Source: Octopus vulgaris
Taxonomy: Eukaryota
DNA length: 64,000 bases
Direction of reading: 5' to 3'
Assembly (NCBI GenBank): GCA_951406725.2
Contig: OX597814.1
Location: 47,120,001-47,184,000 of the forward strand
In this document: piece after piece, positions 2,961 through 57,730 of the stretch
How the letters are laid out: each line of letters starts with the position of its first letter
Numbering within the stretch: position 1 is the first letter of the stretch
The notes under the pieces: generated by a model
The model's database searches: none
What the model saw: the letters and a program-made list of their open reading frames with translations, nothing else
What the model was told of the DNA's origin: nothing
Translations under genes and position numbers: made by a program

Positions 2961-3315
2961 GACAGCTGACACTTTCCATCATACCCAGCAAAATAAGCTG
3001 AAACTTTTCATCAAATGATGATGATGATGATGATGATGATGATGCACATTCCCGTCGAAGATGATGTATGAGTATTCAGCTTTTGCCGAACGACCTGCAC
3101 AGATGATTTGTTTGTAGTGATCAAATGTTCGTGCTGCACATAAGGTCACTCCCTCCATCAAATCGATATGTACCACGCGTCAGGTGTCGATGCGATTGCA
3201 GAGCGACGCGCAGTGAAGTTCTTTGCTCAAAAACACAACGCACCACTCGGTCTAGGAATTGAAACCACTGTCTCGCGATCGTAAGCACAACACCCAAACC
3301 ATTAGGCCATGCACC

Positions 3316-4168
3316 CAGCCCCTACATGGCAAATATTGGGTTAATCTAAACAGAAAAGAAACAGACGAAGCAAAATCCAAACTATGGCTGAGAAGCTCAG
3401 AACTCAGAGCAGAGACTGGAGGTTTTTTAATTGCAGCACAAAATCAAAGCCTTCCCACCAGAAATCACCAAAAACGTGTATGGAAAAGAAATACAAGTAA
3501 CTGCAGAATATGTGGTGATAGAGAAGAAACAATAAGCCATATTGTCTCTGGTTGCCCAGTCCTGGCTAAGAAAGAATATATTCACAGACACGAGTGAGTT
3601 GGGACCTATATACACTGGAAGCTATGCCAACACTATGGAATAACAAAAGAAAAAATATGGTATAGGTACACCCCATAAAAGGTCACAGAAAATGAGAAAG
3701 CAACCATACTCAGGAATATGCCAATGCACGGAGAAAATGAAATTTAGGCCAACAGGTCGGATATAGTGTCAGAGCTCACCAAGAAAAAAAATTGCTTTCT
3801 AATCGATGTATATATACCAATAGATGACAGTGTTTCTCTAAAAGAAACGGAAAAACTTTCAAAATACAAAGATCTGGAAATAGAGGAAACTCAAATGTGG
3901 AGGCTAAAAACAGAAACAATTCCTATTATAGTAGGCGCATTAGGCATGATATAAAAAAACATTCAGGCAAACACTTAACAAAAACACTAGAACTTACAAG
4001 TATATATAACATACTGAAAATAGCACTACTAGGCACTGCACACATTCTACGTAAAACACTTTCAAAACTGTGAAAATAAGAGCACAGCAAACCACAGCAC
4101 ATCCTCAAGGCACAGAGAGATACGTTCAGTAGTGCAATTAAAGCACGTGATAAAAATGAAACTTCTGG
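3316..4168 (+). mobile_element. R4/Dong-like LINE 3' portion ending in a (TAA)n tract
   Basis: PLHGKY...ETGGFLIAAQNQSLPTRN...CRICG..EETISHIVSGC zinc knuckle, then CFLIDV.IP...EKLSKYKDLEIE...IPIIVGALG; followed by (TAA)n at 4169-4229. Confidence 0.9.
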
Positions 4169-9395: not shown

Positions 9396-9533
9396 TTCGT
9401 TGGAGTTGAAGCTGTGGTAACTCTTATTGTGGATCAGTTTCCCAAACAACTACGTCGAGGCTATCGCAAAGAAATATTCACTGGTTGTGTGTGCATAGCG
9501 TCCTTCTTTTTTGGATTGCCGATGTGTATGAAT
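9396..9533 (+). CDS. SLC6 transporter exon (TM8-TM9), 138 bp
   Basis: Poly-T tract + tAG acceptor, GTaagt donor; FVGVEAVVTLIVDQFPKQLRRGYRKEIFTGCVCIASFFFGLPMCMN, in phase with the previous exon; LRRGYRKEIF resembles the TauT/GAT loop. Confidence 0.96.
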
Positions 9534-10429
9534 GTAAGTATATTATCAGAAAAAAGATCTTTTGACATTTTTATATCAACTTTATTTATTTATCTATTTT
9601 TAAAGGATAAACAAAAAATTCTGGTATTCATTGTTCTGGAATGAACTATTTCAAAATTCGGAAGAGAAAGAACTACAAACTGGTAATGAAAACTAGATAG
9701 TCAACTTAAATCGCCTGGAGCTTAGCTCAGTTCGACTAAGAAAAGAGTATACCTAAAAATAACTAGAAATTTGTTGAGACTGCTTCAGAGATGTTATCAG
9801 TTATTTATATACTGTTTCGTTTCTTTAATTAATGTAACAAATACAATGATCTGCTTGATTAAGCTTTCCTATCTGTATACAATATTATATTTAATATTTG
9901 CATTCTTGTCTGTACAAAACAATATATACATAGTTTGTTTTGGGAAGATATACTCATTAGCTTGGGAAGTGATACGCAACATGGATGACCTCTGTAGCTA
10001 TCTCCGGGCTTACCATATTAATGAAAAGAAAATCACTATATTGATATATAATAATGTGCGCAAATAGGTGTCAACAATTATAATAACTGATGGAAATTAC
10101 CAAGAGAAGCTAAATACATAAAAGCTAACAGTCAAATTAGTGCTATACTTAATGTAGCGAGGAAAAAATCTAATTCATAATACTTATGCGATGAGGAGAA
10201 AACATTAGCTCAATAATTAATATTATTCACTTCACTCAATCCTTCCTTCCCAGAAGTCTAATTGTCTAGGCTTTTGAAAAAGGATTGAGGGGAGTCCACA
10301 CCTTCTCAGCAGGTATCAACGTGTATGAGGGTCTACGAAGACTATATATTTTTTTTAATATCCAAACATTTTCTTAAATCTCTTTATATAGATTGTGAAT
10401 TTTTTTTACTTGTTGAGTCTGGGGAAGAG

Positions 10430-18059: not shown

Positions 18060-18591
18060 ACACATTGTTGGTGTCCATCAGTTGACTTTAAAGATGATGG
18101 ATATGGAAATTGTGAGGCTTGTGCTTTCCCTAACACATTAACTCTCAGAAGCTTTTTCAGTCTTCTATTATAACTCCATTCATGTCTAAGATACTCTGTG
18201 GGGACAATAAAAATAGACCTAATACTTAACTGGTACTTTGTTTCTTCAATCCTGGGAAGGAAGAAAAGTGAAGCTGACCTTTGCATAGTTTGAATTCAGA
18301 ACATAAAGTGCTGAAACTAAATACTACAAGCATATTGTTCAATTCTTTAACTATTCTGCCAACAGACTATTGAAGTGAAATTAAATAATTTCCACAAAGA
18401 ATCAAAACTAAAGTACTATCTTAGGGAGAAAACTAAAATGTTATTAATTTAGTATAAAGTAACCTTATAGGAAAAAATATATATGTTTAGCTTTGAAATA
18501 TCAAATATGCATTAAGATTATCTCTTCAATTATTTATCATACATTTTAGCCATTCATTTAAATAAAAAGTATTTTCTCTTTTGTTTTTCAG

Positions 18592-18768
18592 ACAATATTT
18601 ATAATGAGTGTAGTAAACTATACTGAACTCACATACAAAAGACCATCAGGGACCTATGTATATCCAGATTGGGCTGTTGGAATTGGCTGGACAATGGCTC
18701 TTGTCTCAGCCATTTTTATTCCAATTGTTGCCTTAGTTTTGGTTCTCAAGCAATCAAATGCAAAAGCG
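18592..18768 (+). CDS. SLC6 transporter exon (TM11 end-TM12), 177 bp
   Basis: ttgtttttcAG acceptor, GTaagt donor; TIFIMSVVNYTELTYKRPSGTYVYPDWAVGIGWTMALVSAIFIPIVALVLVLKQSNAKA contains the SLC6 YxYPxW..xIGW motif. Confidence 0.95.
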
Positions 18769-19444
18769 GTAAGTTGTAAAACATTTGCTACAAAATTTTA
18801 AGTAAAATGAAAATAAACCTGGAGGTGGGTTGATGAAATCTTCATCATCACCCTGAACATCATCATACACATTATTATCATCATAATCATCGTCAGCCTC
18901 ATCCTCATCATCATCATTATCATCAGCAGCAGCAGCAGCAGTAGCATTTACATTCTGTGCATTAGCTTAATTACTATTTATCACACTTGTTTGAACTGGA
19001 AAATCCAAACTATGAGTTTCTTTATTTTGTCCTGTTCAACTGCCAACATGTTTGTTCAGTAATGTCATTCTATTTGTGGCAAACACTTGTTATAGCTTCT
19101 AATATATTATCCTTGTGTTGTCATCAAATCCAGACACACACATTCAATGAAACAGTTTTTTTTTGTTTGTTTTTCATCTATTCTCTATATAAAACTCCTT
19201 TCATAATCCTTCATTACAAGCTAAATGTAACATTACAAATATAAGTCTACTATATTTCTCAATTTTTCTTTGAGACATGACTGGAAGCAAGAAAAATGTC
19301 AAAAGGAAACTGCAAGTCAGGAATGAGGTTACATAATAGTTGTTAGATTAATTCAATGGACTGCAGACTACATGATCATAAGTTCAAACCACAGAATCTC
19401 TACACAGGGCACATTCTGCAGCCTGATTCATTCTTCCTTGCTGG

Positions 19445-30427: not shown

Positions 30428-31670
30428 CGAGGGGTGTATGAAAAGTCTTGAGCTTCAAAACAACAAAATATGGTACAAGACAGAAGTGATTTATTTTTCA
30501 ACATAGTCCCCCTCGATAGCTGAACACTTTCTCCAGCGATGCTGAAGCGCCATTATCTCGGCATAGAGGAACTCTTTTGTTTGAGACTCCAAGAAACTTA
30601 CTACAGCGTCTATGACGTCATTGTCACTACCAAAATGGCGACCAGCCAGGGTATCTTTCATTTTTGGGAATAGATGTAAGTCAGAGGGGGCTAAGTCTGG
30701 CGAATAGTGCGGATGGGGAACAAGTTCATATCCACAATCACGAACTGCTACCATGGCAATCACTGAGGTGTGGGCTGGAGCATTGTCGTGATGAAAAATG
30801 ACTCCTCTAGTGAGCATTCCCTGCCTTTATTCTTTGTTTGCTTCTCGGAGGCGTTTCAGTAGCTGAGAATAATACATCCCTGTCACGGTGTGATCCTTTT
30901 CAAGGTAATCGATCAGCAAGACAACTTGGGAACACCCCCCCACCAAAAAAAAACAACGGAAGCCAGGACCTTGCCAGCTGAAGGACTGACCCTGGCCTTC
31001 TTTGATTTCAGGCTGGTAATGATGAACCCAACTTTCGTCCATAGTAATGAAACGAGCAAGAAAGCTCTCTTCATCGGTTTCAAACACTTCCAGATTGCTC
31101 GAGGACAAAGTGCACCTGGCGCATTTCTGTTCAGGAGTCAAAAGGCGAGGGACCCACCTTGCAGAAACCTTTGAGAACCCAAGTTCTTTTGTCACAATGT
31201 TGTCTGCTCTCTCAGTTGAGATGCCCAGTCTCTTGGCTGCCCAACGACATGATATTCGACGATCTTGCATTATCATACCAAGAGCAAGGTCAATATTGTC
31301 CTCGGTGGTTGCAGTTGGAGGTCTTCCTGGTCTGGGATCATCTTCCACACTCTCTCTGCCACGCTGGAATTCGTTTACCCAGTGTTTGACTGTTGCGTAT
31401 GAAGGAGCATTGTCTGTTAAGGTTCTCGCCATATTTTTATGGATTTCAAATGAAGGTACTTTATGACAGCACGATTCTCAGTTTCCTCCATTTTCCTTGT
31501 AACCCCGACACTTGTTTATTCAAAAATCTGTAACAAAACAAAATTAAAATATCAGAATCATGAAAATGAGCACGAATACTCCGAAAAGACTGTACTTACC
31601 AGAAAAAATGTTTCAGCTACCTAGCAGCCCCGTTTCTAGGTTAAGCTCAAAACTTTTCATACACCCCCTC

Positions 31671-32829: not shown

Positions 32830-34904
32830 TATATATATATAGTGAGAATTTACAAAAAAAAAAAAGACGAAGACAGGTGTGTAAACAACAAACAGATGTA
32901 TTAGTTTAACGTTTGGAAAGTGAGAAAGTCTTTTACGTTTCGAGCCTACGCTCTTCGACAGAAAGGAATACAGAAATAAACAAGGAGAGGAAATAGAAAA
33001 AAGGTTTAGTGGCTAGCGATTTGTCATGGCGAATGCCGGACAGATGGGTCACACAGTAGAGCTAGGAAGAAGAGGAGATAATAAAGTAGTGGTGATCCCA
33101 AAACGAAAGTGCACGTGCGTAAGTATGTGAGAGCAAGTATGTGCGCATGGAAGGAGGCTGATGACCTTGACGTGTGAGTGTGTGCATGTGTAGGTGTGTG
33201 GCTGATAGCGTAGGTGCTGGGAAGTGGTCAGTGCTAGTGTGTGCGGAGTGGTGTGATGTGGTATGGTGGTGTGTGGTGTGGTGGTGTTGGGGAGGCGAGA
33301 GTAGGGGGAGCGGGGCTAGTCTAAGGGATGGGGTGGTGGGTGGGATGTATTGGGATGGTGGGGTTCGAATGAGTAGGAGTGGGGTAATGAGGGGGGGGTG
33401 ACGATGAAGGGAGAGGATGAAAGGGAGAAGGTGGGTAGGAGTGAAGAGAGGAAGTAGGTGCCAGAGCAAGAGAAAAGAGGTGTATGGGAGGAAGTAGGTG
33501 TGAGAAGAAGATAGGAAAGTGGAGGAGGGTTAGATGAAGAAGGGAGGAGAGTTGAGCCCATGTGATGCAAAGGAGCGAAGAGAGAAAATTAATCCCTGCT
33601 CACGGCGAAGACGGGAGTCTGGATGGCCCCTATGCAAGGACAACCTGAACACAGACAGGTGTTGTAAAGAGTGACCGGTAGAGCGGAAATGGCGCGAGAC
33701 CGAGGTGTCGTTGCCAAGTCTGATGTCTCGGAAGTGTTCCGCGAACCGGCGTCCCGTTTGACTGATGTATAGAGGACAGAGAGAGCAGGAGATGCAGTAG
33801 ATGACGTTGCTAGAAATGCAGGTGAAGGAGTCAGTGATATGATAGGGTCGATAATGGGTGTCTGTGAGAAGGGTGGTGTTGGAGAGGTAAGAGCAAGTGC
33901 GGCAGCGTGGGCAGGAGCAAAGGAAGGGGCCGGATTGGGAGGTTGGGCTAGGGAAGAAGCAGTGGACCAAGAGGTCTCGTAGGTTGTGCGCTCGTTTGAA
34001 GGAGGGGAGGGGTCGGTTAGGGAAGATATGCGAGGCGCAGGGGTCGAACTGAAGTCGCCAGAAGGCTCAGAGAATGGTGCGTTGGAGAGATGGGTGGTGG
34101 AGTGGTAGGTGAGGGGAAACGGGAGACGGGTGACGGGGTGGTAGCGGGGGGGAGCAGATGCACGGTCAACGGAACCTGTTCTGGCAAGGTTGGTGTGGAA
34201 AGAGGTGAGGGGATATCCACGTAGGATGAAGGGGCTAGCCGTGAGTTGAGACTGAGACTCAAAGTCATGGTTGTCACTGCGTAGACGGAGGAATTGGGAA
34301 TAGGAGATGGAGAGCTTGGTGTGTTTAGGGTTGGAGGAGGAGAAGTTGAGGTATGAGTGTGAGTCTGTGTGTTTGTAGTGAATGGAGGTGGTGAGAGTGG
34401 AGTGATGAATGCTGACCGAAATGTCGAGAACGGCGACTGAGGTGTCGGAAATAGTGCAGAAGTGGAGGGCAGGATGGAAAGATTTGACAAAAGAGAGGAA
34501 GGAGTCTAGATGTTCACGGGAGAGTGAGGTCGCACCGATACAGTCGTCAATATAGTTCAGGAGTGGGACCAGTGAAACTTTAGAGTGTTTGGGCCTCAAC
34601 GTAGCCAACAAACAGGCTCGCATAGTTGGGGCACATTCTTGTTACCATGGCCTGCTGGTAAAAATCACCCGCGGACAAGAAGCAGTTAAGTGAGAGGACA
34701 AGTTCAGCCAGACGAAGGAGTGTGGATGTGTCAAGTTGGAGGTTGGGTCGAAGGTCAAGGAAATGTTGGAGTGCGCGCAGCCCCTCGTGGTGATGGATCA
34801 CCGTGTATAGAGTCTTGATGTCAAAAGTGAGGAGAAGTTTAGAGGGGCCAGGAGGGAAATTAAGAAATCAACTCGTAAATAAACGAAACCCTCTAATCCA
34901 TCAC

Positions 34905-34947
<43 letters not shown>

Positions 34948-35700
34948 TTGCATATGTATGTATGTATATGCCTGCATATGTTTATGCACAAAGGTGCATC
35001 ATGATCTATACACATGCAGACGAAAAAGTAAGCGAACAAAATAATATGACTACTTGCTTATCGGGAAATCTGTAAGTTCGATTTTGTAAATTTTTTTTTA
35101 TGTATCACCATTATACTCTAGTGAAATTAAGAATAGTTGGTGTCATGGATGTGAGGTTGGAGGGAAGCCACTAGGGGGGCAAGGACACGGTCAAGATATC
35201 TGGAGATGAGTTCGATGGGGCAGTTGCAGGCGGGGACGATGAGGCGGCCATGGGTTATTAAATTTCTGGAGTTTGGGGAAGAAGTCAATTCAAATAAACA
35301 AATAATATAAACAGACAAGATGACGTGCACAAAGAATGTAATAGTTTGAGAAAATGGATTTTTGGGACAGGGGAGTGCAAAGAAGGCCAGTGTATGTGCA
35401 GTAATATTTGTGTGCGTATGTGTTTGTCCGAGTGACGTACGTAATAGGTCAACGAACAGGTTAGTAGCTGGTGTTTGGTTCAGTCGAAGAAGGTGAAGGT
35501 TTGTGAGTGGGTGTGGCTGTGTATGTGTTTGCATGAGTGCGCGTGACATAGAGGAAATGTATGTGTGTGTGTACGTGCGCGCGCGTACGAGGGCAGTGTG
35601 TGCATATGAGTGTGTATGTATATATGTGCATATGAGTGTGTGTGAGGTCGTATGGGTGTAGGTATATGTACGTGTGTGGGTGCGTGATGTAACCGTGCGT
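32830..35700 (-). mobile_element. Penelope-like retroelement (Neptune-type), degenerate RT + GIY-YIG endonuclease
   Basis: Frameshifted RT fragments (ELISRYLDRVLAPLV; TFDIKTLYT; LRLAELVLSLNCF; YIDDCIG; VLDISV; SYSQFLRLR) and GIY-YIG domain 33530-33970 (CPRCRTC...FTCISSNVIYCISCSLCPLYISQTGRRFAEH...HGLN). Confidence 0.92.
32930..32965 (-). ncRNA. HHR-like motif in the PLE terminal repeat
   Basis: CTTT-CTGTCGA-A-GAGC(gtag)GCTC-GAAAC-GTA-AAAG: stems I and II pair; the core has one substitution versus CUGACGA; lies downstream of a GIY-YIG ORF. Confidence 0.65.
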
Positions 35701-36009
35701 GTGGTTTTTGTATGTGTGCGAGCTTACGTGTGTGCGAACTATATGTATGTGCGTATGAGTGCGTGTGTGCGTATGTGCGTATATATATATATATGCGTAT
35801 GAGTGTGCGTGTGGATGTGTGTGTGCGTGTGTGAGTGTGTATGTGTGTGTGTGTGGTGTGAGAGGTGTGTGGGGTGTGAGAGGGGAGACGACAAGTATGT
35901 GAGGGCGTTGGTGTTGCTGTTAGTATGTATATTTTTGTCTGAGTGCGTATGAGTGTGTATAAAGACGTCTATGTGACTGTGTATGTGTGACCGTGTGTGT
36001 GAGAGCGGC

Positions 36010-36075
<66 letters not shown>

Positions 36076-36157
36076 AGAGACAAAACCACTATTTTGCAAA
36101 ACAAACAAGGAAAGACTTAATCAATACATAAAATTTTAATAAATAGTCAAAAAACCG

Positions 36158-36198
36158 CCACTACAATCGTTTCGTCTTGATCGACAATCTTCAGGTGG
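36158..36198 (-). ncRNA. Mirror-image hammerhead ribozyme (2-nt shorter stem II)
   Basis: Minus strand reads CCAC-CTGAAGA-TTGTC(gatcaa)GAC-GAAAC(gatt)GTA-GTGG. Confidence 0.7.
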
Positions 36199-36239
36199 AC
36201 TTCAATAAGTCAGTATCATTGATACTGACTTATTGAAGT

Positions 36240-36282
36240 CCACCTGAAGATTGTCGATCAAGACAAGAAACGATTGTAGTGG
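36240..36282 (+). ncRNA. Minimal type I hammerhead ribozyme with intact core
   Basis: CCAC-CTGAAGA-TTGTC(gatcaa)GACAA-GAAAC(gatt)GTA-GTGG: stem I CCAC/GTGG, CUGANGA box, 5-bp stem II, GAAA box, short near-palindromic stem III; predicted cleavage after A36278. Confidence 0.85.
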
Positions 36283-37591
36283 CGGTTTTTTTGACTATTT
36301 ATTAAAATTTTATGTATTGATTAAGTCTTTCCTTGTTTGTTTTGCAAAATAGTGGTTTTGTCTCTAATAATATTTTATAATATTTTACTATAAAATTGGA
36401 TTTAATCCTAAATCTGATTTTTTTCCCTGTAAATTTGGATTTATTCCCTAATATTTATTATTATATATATATATATATATATAAAAAGAATTTCAAAAAT
36501 TCACTGCGATTCGTTTAGACTTTTTATTGTTACATTTTTAAAGACCTAACAGGTTTCACAGGTTTCTCTGATTTTCAAAAGTTGAGTTACAAAGACGTGG
36601 AGTTATGTCACAAGTGTCTTGCTTCTGATAGGAATTCAAAAATTCCTTTGTTTTTTTATAGAAACATTGCTCGATACGCTTTGATTGGCCGAGAATGATC
36701 ACGTGGTTAGGTTTAGAAAGTTTTTTTTCGTTCGTTCCCTGTTACGTCCATTCTTTAATGTCATGTGATAATGTTTGGTGCCTGCGGTTGAGTGAACATG
36801 TCTCGTGACAATCCCAAACAATTAGGGGTGTCAATTTTATCTGTCAAATGTGATAGAGAAAGATCATGTTATTAGCTTTAAAAATTTTTGTAGGTTCCCT
36901 GCTACGTCCGTGCGTAAATATCATGTGACTTCACTTTTTACTCCGAAAATTAAGGCTGATACAGTTAAGTGAACATGTCTAGCGACCATAGACTTACAAA
37001 TAAACAAAGACAATATATTCATATAAAAATAGCAACCAGTACTGAATAAACTTCAACAAACTACATTCACGAACAACTATTCGCGCACAAATTCATTCTA
37101 CTGTTTGACATGTTGAATTTATACAGGTACCAACCTAAACTTTGGACACAATTATGACTTTTCCCCGTATGGCACTAATACACAAATTTGATGCCTGCAT
37201 AGACATAAGCCAAAATTATTCAATTACTGGGCTCCATAGAAACAACTCCTGTCCATTCCACCACTTGACAGATGAAATTTAGAGACCCTGGTTTTGAGAC
37301 TTTGACTAAACATGTTCACTCAACCGTGTCAGCTTTAATTTTAGGCAAATACTAATTTGAGCTATGTTCTCTCAACAAACGCAAGATAATTTTTTAAAAT
37401 CAAAAAATCTGTGAAACCGGTTAAATCTTTAAATTTTTTTAAACAGAAAATCTAAATGAATCTCGGTATCTTTTCAATTTTTTTTTTCTCTATATTTCTA
37501 TCCGTGTGGAATAAAATAATTTTACGTCATATGTAAACAAACATAAATTTGTTTTTGAAGCACTGAAATATATTGTAGTACAAGTAGAAAG

Positions 37592-37675
37592 ATATATAGA
37601 ATGAAATCCTTACAGAGCAGAAAAATCTGGTTGCTGACAGATTTTTCTGCCCTGTAAGGATTTTATCCTATATAT
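37592..37675. repeat. 84-bp hairpin (38-bp arms, 8-nt loop)
   Basis: ATATATAGAATGAAATCCTTACAGAGCAGAAAAATCTG / CAGATTTTTCTGCCCTGTAAGGATTTTATCCTATATAT; about three mismatches. Confidence 0.9.
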
Positions 37676-37717
37676 GCTGTTCTATCAGTACTTACGCGTT
37701 GAAAAATACCTTTGTTT

Positions 37718-37826
<109 letters not shown>

Positions 37827-37929
37827 AATATATATATATATTTATATATATATATATAAAGTTGTGTGTGTTGAAAAATATATGCTGTTCTATCAGTACT
37901 TACGCGTTGAAAAATACCTTTGTTTATAC

Positions 37930-38005
<76 letters not shown>

Positions 38006-38007
38006 AT

Positions 38008-38038
<31 letters not shown>

Positions 38039-38060
38039 AATATATATATATATTTATATA

Positions 38061-38457
38061 TATATATATAAGAGTGAAGTTGTGTGTCTGTCCCCTTCGA
38101 TTTAGATTCGTAACTACTCCCACATTTTGCGGTGCAGTTTAACCAAAAGCGGGTATCTTATAGTCGTGATTCATATCGAGCCCTTCAGGGTATTAGCGCG
38201 CGTCTACGATGAGTCTACGATTTTAAAAAAATTTACCATCATATTTTTCCATTTTAATGCATTTTTTTCGCTTTTATATAAGGGAAGTAACTCTCTAAAA
38301 ATATCTACGATGTGTCAACGATTTAAAAAAAAAATTTACCTTAATTTTTTTTCAATTTTTAATGCATTTTTTTGCTATTTTTTGGCTATAACTCTCTAAA
38401 AATGCTTATATAGTTATTTCCCTTACAACGCCGAGCAACGCCGGGCGATACTGCTAG
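38061..38457 (+). mobile_element. Non-autonomous Helitron
   Basis: 3' end CCGAGCAACGCCGGG (imperfect hairpin)...CTAG|T; sits within (TA)n; same 3' end inverted at 43305. Confidence 0.8.
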
Positions 38458-52852: not shown

Positions 52853-54299
52853 GCAGAGATGCTCAAAATATCTGGTAGTGTCGGCTATAGCCTAGTCACC
52901 CGTTTAGTTAATCAGGTGATACATGAAGGAGTCATACCCAATGACTGGTGTAGCAGCATAATAGTCAACTGCTACAAAGGTAAAGGTGACGCCCTAGATA
53001 CAAATAATTACAGAGGTATCAAGCTGTTGGATCAGGTAATGAAGGTTATGGAGAGGGTCATAGCCCAACTAATTAGAGAGAGTTAGTTTAGATGAGATGC
53101 AGTTTGGGTTCGTGCCAGGGAAAAGTACCACTGATGCTATATTCCTGGTAAGGCAGCTACAGGAGAAATACCTAGCCAAAGATAAGCCCCTGTACCTGGC
53201 TTTTGTTGACATGGAGAAAGCCTTCAACAGGGTCCCCCGATCCCTTATCAGGTGGTCAATGAGGAAACTAGGGATAGATGAATGGTTAGTGAGAGCTGTG
53301 CGAGCCATGTACAGGGACGCTGCTAGTAAGGTGAGGGTTGGCAACGAGTACAGTGAAGAATTCCGGGTAGAGGTAGGGGTCCACCAAGGCTCAGTCCTCA
53401 GCCCCCTCCTATTTATCATAGTCCTCCAGGCAATAACGGAGGAATTCAAGACAGGATGCCCCTGGGAACTCCTCTATGCTGATGACCTTGCTCTAATTGC
53501 TGAGTCACTATCAGAACTGGAGGAGAAGTTTCAGGTGTGGAAGCAAGGATTAGAATCGAAGGGCCTTAGAGTCAACCTAGCTAAAACCAAAGTCTTAATA
53601 AGTAGGAAGGCAGGCAAACCACAAATCCCTTCAGATAGTTGGCCCTGCTCGATCTGTAGAAAGGGCGTAGGTAGAAACTCTATAAGATGTACCCAGTGTA
53701 AGCTATGGACACATAAGAGGTGCAGCAATATCAAAGGAAGGCTAACTGGGAGGATAGTTTTTGTATGTGGCAGATGCTCAGGAGCAATAAACACTGAAAA
53801 TGCACAGAGAACAACTTATGCTACATTCCAGGGAGAAAAACTAGAAGTAGTTGATAGCTTCCATTACCAAGGTGGCCAAGTCAGTAGCAGGGGAGGGTGC
53901 ACTGAAAGTGTAGCTGCTAGAATAAGAATAGCCTGGGCAAAGTTCAGAGAGCTCTTACCTCTGCTGGTGACAAAGGGCCTCTCGCTCAGAGTAAAAGGTA
54001 GACTGTATGATGCATGTGTACTAACAGCCATGCTAAATGGCAGTGAAACATAGGCCGTGACTGCTGAGGACATGCGTAAGCTCACAAGGAATGAAGCCAC
54101 TATGCTCTGATGGATGTGTAATGTCAGTGGGCATACTCAACAGAGTGTAAGTACTTTGAGAGAAAAGTTGGACCTAAGAAGCATCAAATGTGGTGTGCAA
54201 GATAGATGACTGTGCTGGTATGGTCATGTGGCAAGAATGGATGTGGATAGCTGTGTGAAAAAGTGCCACACCCTAGCGGTTGAGGGAATCTGTGGAAAG
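52853..54299 (+). mobile_element. RTE-clade LINE fragment (RT with embedded Cys/His finger)
   Basis: ORFs 52859-53086 and 53097-54053: NYRGIKLL, QFGF, AFVDMEKAF, GVHQGSVLSPLLF, LLYADDL; premature stops; truncated at both ends. Confidence 0.95.
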
Positions 54300-57494: not shown

Positions 57495-57730
57495 AAAGAT
57501 AGAAAAAATAGGTGATGAGTGTATATACATATTTCAAGATCTATTGCTCTTTCATCAGCACAACATCAACTTAAACACCCACTATGTTTAGTGGTATAAT
57601 ACAAGCAATGTGATCATGGATATTTAAGCAATGTGATCATGGATAGTCGATGGTTTGGAAGTGGTGTAAATGAAAGAGCAATAACTCTTGGAATATACAT
57701 ATTCACTTGTTACCTATTTTTTCTATCTTT
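57495..57730. repeat. Diverged foldback element, ~65-bp arms
   Basis: AAAGATAGAAAAAATAGGT...TATTGCTCTTTCAT / ATGAAAGAGCAATA...ACCTATTTTTTCTATCTTT. Confidence 0.8.

Follow-up and report, generated by a model that had tools for sequence, protein, structure and literature searches.

The palindrome and its setting

In a stretch of 64,000 nucleotides of Octopus vulgaris DNA (hereafter the window), a head-to-head palindrome centred on T36219 lies within a (TA)n microsatellite and comprises two opposed copies of sequence from a Penelope-like element (PLE). A first-pass annotation had described arms of about 150 bp with a spacer at 36219 and two small indels, embedded in (TA)n and free of ORFs, and these features were borne out. 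Self-BLAST of the window (E 1.9e-148) returned arms of ~153 bp, the innermost 45 bp perfect, the left arm lacking 2 nt at one point and 1 nt at another, and found no further copy of the palindrome in the window; (TA)n adjoins it at either end, and no ORF of at least 150 aa in the window overlaps it. The span originally assigned, 36068..36463, requires amendment: the palindrome within it is real, but 36377-36461, the last 85 nt of the feature then noted, is a non-palindromic PLE "tail" present on the right arm only. Features of the locus are collected in Table 1.

Table 1. Features of the palindromic locus, in window coordinates.
Feature	Position	Strand	Basis or remark
(TA)n target microsatellite, left flank	36010..36068	.	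(TA)n is the target reported for Hydra PLEs (PMC8557442)
Short arm: spliced leader copy, outer end at the family's tail-less end	36069..36218	-	125/131 short ends within 8 nt
Damaged hammerhead, stem II 3' strand short by 2 nt	36158..36198	-	Alignment, descriptor scan
Left-arm exon 1 / exon 2 splice junction	36206..36207	-	Comparison with parent
Apex: arm-arm junction at the presumed former RNA 5' end	36214..36224	.	Unique among 66 apices
Long arm, shared part: spliced leader copy (remaining exon 1 + exon 2)	36220..36376	+	
Right-arm exon 1 / exon 2 splice junction	36231..36232	+	Parent has a 1,816-nt GT-AG intron here
Intact minimal type I hammerhead, self-complementary stem III (dimer type)	36240..36282	+	Predicted cut after A36278
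PLE "tail", ~85 nt, one arm only	36377..36461	+	Parent counterpart ends 55 nt before ATG
(TA)n, right flank	36462..36483	.	

A descriptor scan of both window strands upheld the complete type I hammerhead proposed for the right arm, in which the core (CUGANGA, GAAA, UH) and stems I-III are all present, and gave one further match, weak and unrelated, at 57558. The same ribozyme had been ascribed to the left arm; that copy escapes the descriptor, having lost 2 nt from the 3' strand of stem II beside GAAA, which leaves a stem II of 3 bp with 2 nt unpaired. The suggestion that this is a minimal, dimer-type hammerhead agrees with its predicted folding: in co-folding, two molecules of the right-arm sequence form a double hammerhead through ACGAUUGU at -21.4 kcal/mol (monomer MFE -6.5), and each of the three stem III variants seen (ACAAUUGU, ACGAUCGU and ACGAUUGU) is self-complementary. 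Pair 10.1-11.1 is U-A here, not G-C, and is A-U or mismatched in relatives. The Rfam hammerhead scan that had been proposed as a check returned no match in the window at the gathering score and none (0/18) at E<=10, and the Rfam miRNA matches at the palindrome reflect the hairpin alone. Across subfamilies and a sister family the hammerhead core and stems are nearly invariant while loop II varies; with the self-complementary stem III, this conservation points to selection in the parent element. Covariation amounted to a single compensatory change, not above shuffles (112/500).

Other remnants were recognized elsewhere in the window. Immediately to the left, at 32842-36009 (-), a decayed second PLE with RT and GIY-YIG fragments occupies the same (TA)n tract, and near 32935-32975 its terminal repeat bears a hammerhead-like motif with the variant core CUGUCGA; this neighbour was rejected as the palindrome's parent, its protein match not being significant. 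Pfam searches of 82 of 101 candidate frames identified exons of an SLC6/SNF sodium:neurotransmitter symporter (PF00209) at 9396-9641 and 18562-18798 (+), both matching near the C-terminal end of the profile, together with a mariner-like transposase remnant at 30494-31477 (-), a LINE RT fragment (RVT_1 with a PHD-like finger) at 53073-54050 (+) and a zf-RVT fragment at 3256-3594 (+). At 37602-38070 a short unique segment occurs twice, 208 bp apart, amid long (TA)n tracts.

The parent element and the leader copies

A 5,996-bp tandem unit carrying an 838-aa RT/GIY-YIG ORF was reached through paired copies of the core at a spacing of 6 kb, and the palindrome arms match its leader; the proposed origin in a PLE terminal repeat is substantiated. 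Queried against its own genome, the arm gave at least 65 matches from the 40 scored of 986 first-look candidates, many in opposed pairs, and 454 exact copies of its 42-nt core were counted. At eight loci the frame remains open over 838-852 aa, with 98-100% identity across the first 400 aa, indicating that the family is young. In a survey of sequencing runs, 13 of 24 rows contained half or more of the query words; no RNA run was listed as containing them, and since the family is multicopy, such matches are informative neither on this locus nor on expression.

The parent ORF has RT motifs (YRDD) and an EN signature (VVYK...VYIG) in common with seven aligned relatives, and its named relatives come from octopods. 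Pfam gave no RT or EN match on the parent ORF (one relative had a weak RVT_1 match), and a PDB search of the ORF gave none. In coding content, a single ORF with RT and C-terminal GIY-YIG EN, and in architecture, with partial-tandem pLTRs, an inverted truncated copy and a tail at one end, the unit corresponds to an EN+ PLE. The alignment further displays the motifs of the Hydra clade (DKT; KWK, of RWK type; a CxCX5C linker; CxxC/CxH; no CCHH), and insertion in (TA)n and possession of a hammerhead are traits of that clade as well. On its motifs, target and hammerhead we place the parent as a young, 6.0-kb Hydra-clade PLE. Residues ~500-605 of the parent ORF (L048:711-3227) form an asparagine-rich insert between thumb and EN; an Asn-rich ORF insert has been described for Pen2a of A. 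vaga (PMC3846280).

Comparison with the parent revealed the nature of the arms. In the parent a GTAAGT donor closes exon 1 and, 1,816 nt on, a TTTTAG acceptor precedes exon 2; the palindrome arms read exon 1 straight into exon 2, with the intron precisely absent. Genome-wide, 491 spliced and 445 unspliced junctions were counted, with no control match for either, and at least 76 tight spliced palindromes (3-15 nt between anchors; control 2) rule out a one-off inversion among ordinary single pLTRs, the refutation that the first-pass annotation had envisaged for itself. At their inner ends, 158 of 160 spliced arms terminate at, or no more than 12 nt downstream of, one A within TCACTTC, which we take to be initiator-like from the initiator consensus, so that the stop point of the arms probably represents the start of transcription. 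Five of the six arms reaching that A show an additional G at a position occupied by C in the parent, suggestive of a copied cap. Leaders attached to ORFs, on the other hand, were unspliced in 20 cases (16 scored by script, four older variants by eye), spliced in none and uninformative in 10, among the 30 fetched of 42 matches.

The arrangement recurs in a sister Hydra family, which yielded 122 spliced-type matches, many of them tight palindromes. Its GT-AG intron of 1,116-1,117 nt is whole in two of 12 fetched loci, and the acceptor was seen in nine of the 12. This family (L090:2891-3266; L224-L260) has a canonical CUGAUGA core and an intron of its own, and its spliced palindromes have the same two outer ends as those of the parent family. 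At another locus (L068) one arm keeps bases from the start of the intron before exon 2, the donor apparently lying a few bases inside the intron, and appears to be a retro-copy of an alternative splice form.

When the 5' ends of 70 unspliced arms were traced, 26 passed upstream of the start site, two ended within 15 nt of it and 41 stopped in the "intron"; since many of these stops reflect subfamily indels and not true ends, the tracing is qualitative only. Unspliced arms that run past the start site are as expected for tandem or circular templates.

Cleavage at the hammerhead left little trace among the copies. Nine arms start at the cut site, all nine true junctions on inspection, compared with six that start one base upstream, eight one base downstream, and 10 and 15 uninspected matches at two control positions; there is no excess at the cut site over the controls, and the RNA copied was thus mostly uncleaved. 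At one locus (L201/L202) both arms begin at the cut site, and one ORF-bearing copy (L206, identical with L049) begins within one base of it; these are possible rare copies of cleaved RNA, and are suggestive only.

Paired outer ends, splice state and apices

The 154 loci fetched comprise 120 head-to-head pairs and 34 solo loci, the latter including 12 spliced short copies. All but two of the pairs (118/120) combine one tailed with one tail-less end, the others (L058, L158) having two tails. As to splice state, 74 pairs are spliced in both arms, 26 are unspliced in both and none is mixed, while in 20 one arm falls short of the junction. Because the fetched loci had been picked partly for being pairs, the test was repeated on complete match lists, an unbiased set of 75 spliced and 100 unspliced junctions drawn from contigs 1 and 2 and from the initial 64 Mb of contig 3. 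In this set 44 of 45 neighbours within 20 kb are head-to-head, the single tandem pair being a 6-kb autonomous unit, and the 44 divide into 18 spliced/spliced and 26 unspliced/unspliced, with no mixed pair (p about 1e-12).

Outer ends are similarly constrained. Short ends coincide at one point in 89 of 131 cases and fall within 8 nt in 125, and 114 of 131 long ends lie at three points blurred by AT-rich sequence. Where one arm of a pair is truncated, it is the long arm in 13 and the short arm in five (p=0.10). At two loci (L027, L038) the long arm, being nothing but tail, has no overlap with the short arm; neither can therefore have served as template for the other, and each came separately from RNA.

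The two arms of a pair also tend to share sequence variants. Over 109 pairs, four subfamily variants agreed versus disagreed between arms in ratios of 50 to 1, 6 to 0, 14 to 4 and 58 to 6, and 13 rare variants were common to both arms, against a shuffle mean of 0.29 (maximum 6); a further 160 rare variants were confined to one arm.

Apices, by contrast with outer ends, are varied: 66 loci display 30 kinds. The window's apex is unique among them and contains one private base change mirrored across both arms. The commonest kind, a loop-less AATT overlap, accounts for 14 of the 66 loci and spans six haplotypes; a 4-bp hairpin at the RNA 5' end accounts for the second commonest (9/66); and 20 of the 66 are perfect palindromes without a loop. 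Such variety implies that each palindrome was likely made anew at insertion, not copied from a palindromic master. Two loci (L019 and L071) contain foreign DNA between the arms, ~660 and ~130 bp respectively, as if captured in end joining. Small deletions are about fourfold denser in tight-palindrome arms than in solo or distant arms (2.9 vs 0.7 per kb; 22/150 vs 7/107 arms, p=0.047), and in view of this excess the 2-nt loss in the window's left arm may be either a hairpin-related mutation or an assembly error.

Formation of the palindromes and comparison with known systems

The parent element, the precise loss of its intron, the fixed and paired long and short outer ends, and the single start-site position of the 5' ends are established features of this family. 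We consider it probable that the arms are intron-less leader copies and that the palindrome results, likely in one event, from priming by both (TA)n strands, the template for both likely being one spliced sense RNA; the two priming sites would likely be fixed, about 85 nt apart on that RNA. The mRNA would begin at the initiator TCACTTC and be capped and spliced, and the RT/EN protein would bind it just beyond the leader, near the ORF start. After EN had cut both strands, one cut end would prime at the short site and its partner at the long site, with the tail as the interval separating them. Both cDNAs would pass the uncleaved hammerhead as far as the cap, the first being displaced by the second; joining of the two identical 3' ends through short self-complementarity (AATT, AT) or repair would then generate varied apices. 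Because copying would start near the 5' end of the ORF, spliced mRNA would offer only 170-250 nt of leader to copy, and the product would be a tiny promoterless palindrome. Without upstream-of-start sequence, intron or ORF start, leader arms are probably inert and the palindrome a dead product. Unspliced read-through RNA, tandem or circular, would give long, intron-retaining, ORF-bearing copies by the same reaction.

This twin-priming model draws on the genomic copies of the family and its sister and on in vitro analogy to an anole PLE, whose protein cuts and extends both target strands, begins reverse transcription at two internal sites bounding the tail, requires RNA from the ORF's beginning and remains active when the hammerhead is dead (PMC11167929). 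Spliced and unspliced RNAs and a promoter in the pLTR have been reported for Penelope (PMC2377424), with an intron that overlaps the promoter in D. virilis (PMC8557442), and tandem or circular PLE templates have been proposed (PMC4209133). We lean, by a modest degree, toward the broader proposition that fixed-site twin copying is a record of Penelope integration at large, in which spliced mRNA would give dead leaders and unspliced tandem or circular RNA complete elements.

Several observations temper these proposals. That a single RNA served both arms is inferred from their agreement, which could also arise by gene conversion, by assembly homogenization or from sources active at different times, and compartments keeping spliced and unspliced RNPs apart could mimic one template. 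The pairing of long with short ends is broken by the two long+long pairs and by one short+short pair in the sister family, and the excess of truncated long arms that twin priming leads one to expect is weak. The second commonest apex fits snap-back of one cDNA equally well, and the window's mirrored base change fits either snap-back or later conversion.

Among alternatives, dual priming with a separate RNA template for each subunit of a protein dimer is unlikely, though it agrees with the predicted dimer of the PLE protein (PMC11167929), dispenses with strand displacement and would accommodate the 160 rare variants found on a single arm; by itself it yields neither the long+short pairing, nor the lack of mixed splice states among the 44 unbiased pairs, nor the 13 shared rare variants. 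A single cDNA that folds back at the RNA 5' end and is itself copied, the hairpin then being cut and joined, would explain the apices with the 4-bp hairpin, the rare variants common to both arms and the mirrored change in the window. We regard it too as improbable, given the 20 loop-less perfect apices, the long foreign fillers at two loci, the 13 pairs in which the long arm is the truncated one, the two loci whose arms have no sequence in common and the existence of solo short copies.

The first-pass annotation had interpreted the locus as a protein-free "ribozyme foldback" element, spreading as a unit, with a ribozyme switched off in a read-through duplex and freed in a transcript begun near the apex. 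The abundance of tight palindromes, the recurrence of one apex at 14 loci and the very stable fold of the whole palindrome (-252 kcal/mol) speak for such an element, yet we find it very improbable. The arms are intron-less cDNA from the mRNA leader of an autonomous element; apices differ from locus to locus, the commonest spanning six haplotypes, so that the single apex and lineage characteristic of a MITE-like family were not seen among the 66 apices compared. The same end rule governs multi-kb unspliced pairs, both the promoter region and the ORF-start sequence are gone, and ends are not in excess at the cut site. A switch is further opposed by its parts: one strand has a single sense ribozyme, which would need a partner in trans, and the left ribozyme is damaged. 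Nor is the apex a likely origin of transcripts; as a former RNA 5' end it would have no evident promoter nearby, the upstream-of-start sequence and the whole intron being missing.

Self-priming on an antisense template, published to explain head-to-head palindromes and intron retention jointly (PMC3846280), would cover the ORF copies that keep the intron and the 26 pairs unspliced in both arms, but an antisense transcript could neither lose a sense GT-AG intron nor end where sense transcription starts and bear an extra G there, and with 74 of 120 pairs spliced in both arms the model is hard to hold for the spliced class; we give it very little credence here. An assembly or long-read fold-back artefact, which the small-deletion excess might suggest, is equally hard to credit, since it would mirror the flanks and both ends, whereas the flanks are in fact dissimilar and, over many loci in two families, a long end at one fixed site is matched with a short end at another, and since the excess touches the left arm's 2-nt loss rather than the palindrome.

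The locus is real and, in kind, a variation on known PLE anatomy, not a new ribozyme switch. As a switch or host regulator it is probably ordinary; its value lies in what its family reveals of PLE integration. The family provides hundreds of natural integration products marked for strand and RNA processing, which record that sense, spliced RNA was reverse-transcribed, that two known start sites act as an obligate pair and that arms are alike in splice state; it also leads to sharp predictions that can be put to the in vitro PLE system already established and, being young with intact ORFs, material for tests. If the model is true, one mechanism would cover head-to-head repeats, the one-sided tail and the puzzle of intron retention, and spliced leader palindromes would be a general, overlooked product of PLEs.

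In L1 twin priming, two target ends prime on one RNA to give an inversion, with a variable second site and with cDNAs that represent separate portions of the RNA; the octopus family has two fixed sites, and its cDNAs are in most cases fully overlapping. In the literature searched, neither spliced cap-to-tail palindromes nor a strict pairing rule had been described, although older PLE papers or supplements may list this family or intron-less solo pLTRs. Already known are inverted 5'-truncated copies and the one-sided tail (PMC8557442) and back-to-back hammerheads (PMC4209133); PMC12910113 contributes nothing beyond these.

The Penelope elements of Adineta vaga (Arkhipova et al. 2013, PMC3846280) likewise form head-to-head pLTRs with a palindromic junction and an optional tail on one side, and their ORFs likewise contain Asn-rich inserts. 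They are of low copy, and were read as evidence of antisense self-priming and intron retention, with a sense alternative left open; the spliced sense arms and strict pairing described here argue against that reading. Non-LTR retrozymes (bioRxiv 10.64898/2026.07.22.740005) resemble the palindromes in being short, protein-free and PLE-derived with a type I hammerhead, and differ in their head-to-tail arrays; neighbours here are overwhelmingly head-to-head, with no short head-to-tail spliced pair among the 45. The ribozyme itself matches the minimal PLE hammerheads of Cervera and de la Pena (2014, PMC4209133) in its type I form, short palindromic helix III and dimer type, departing from them in having U-A at 10.1-11.1 in place of the conserved G-C; that account mentions dual hammerheads of Schistosoma on opposite strands, 100-700 bp apart, only in passing, and notes that the end of the D. 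virilis intron adjoins helix I.

With Poseidon_Ac (PAc) of Anolis (Frangieh et al. 2024, PMC11167929) the octopus family has in common an AT-rich target and, by our model, two internal RT starts bounding the tail, cutting and extension of both strands and a dispensable hammerhead. PAc differs in being an in vitro system from another clade with both start sites within the ORF, and in the parts of that report available to us the two sites are not connected with the arms of a single insertion, nor are spliced copies reported. The closest correspondence is with the C-terminal EN+ PLEs of the Hydra clade, which are reported to insert in (TA)n (Craig et al. 2021, PMC8557442): alike are DKT, the RWK-type motif (KWK here), the CxCX5C linker, CxxC and CxH in EN, the lack of CCHH, the hammerhead, the (TA)n target, the inverted 5'-truncated copy and the one-end tail. 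Set apart from described members, generally under 3 kb, the octopus unit reaches 6.0 kb, with a 1.8-kb intron in its 5' UTR, an Asn-rich insert and a tail of ~85 nt, against the 30-40 nt described for PLEs; and about half of its junctions are spliced leader copies.
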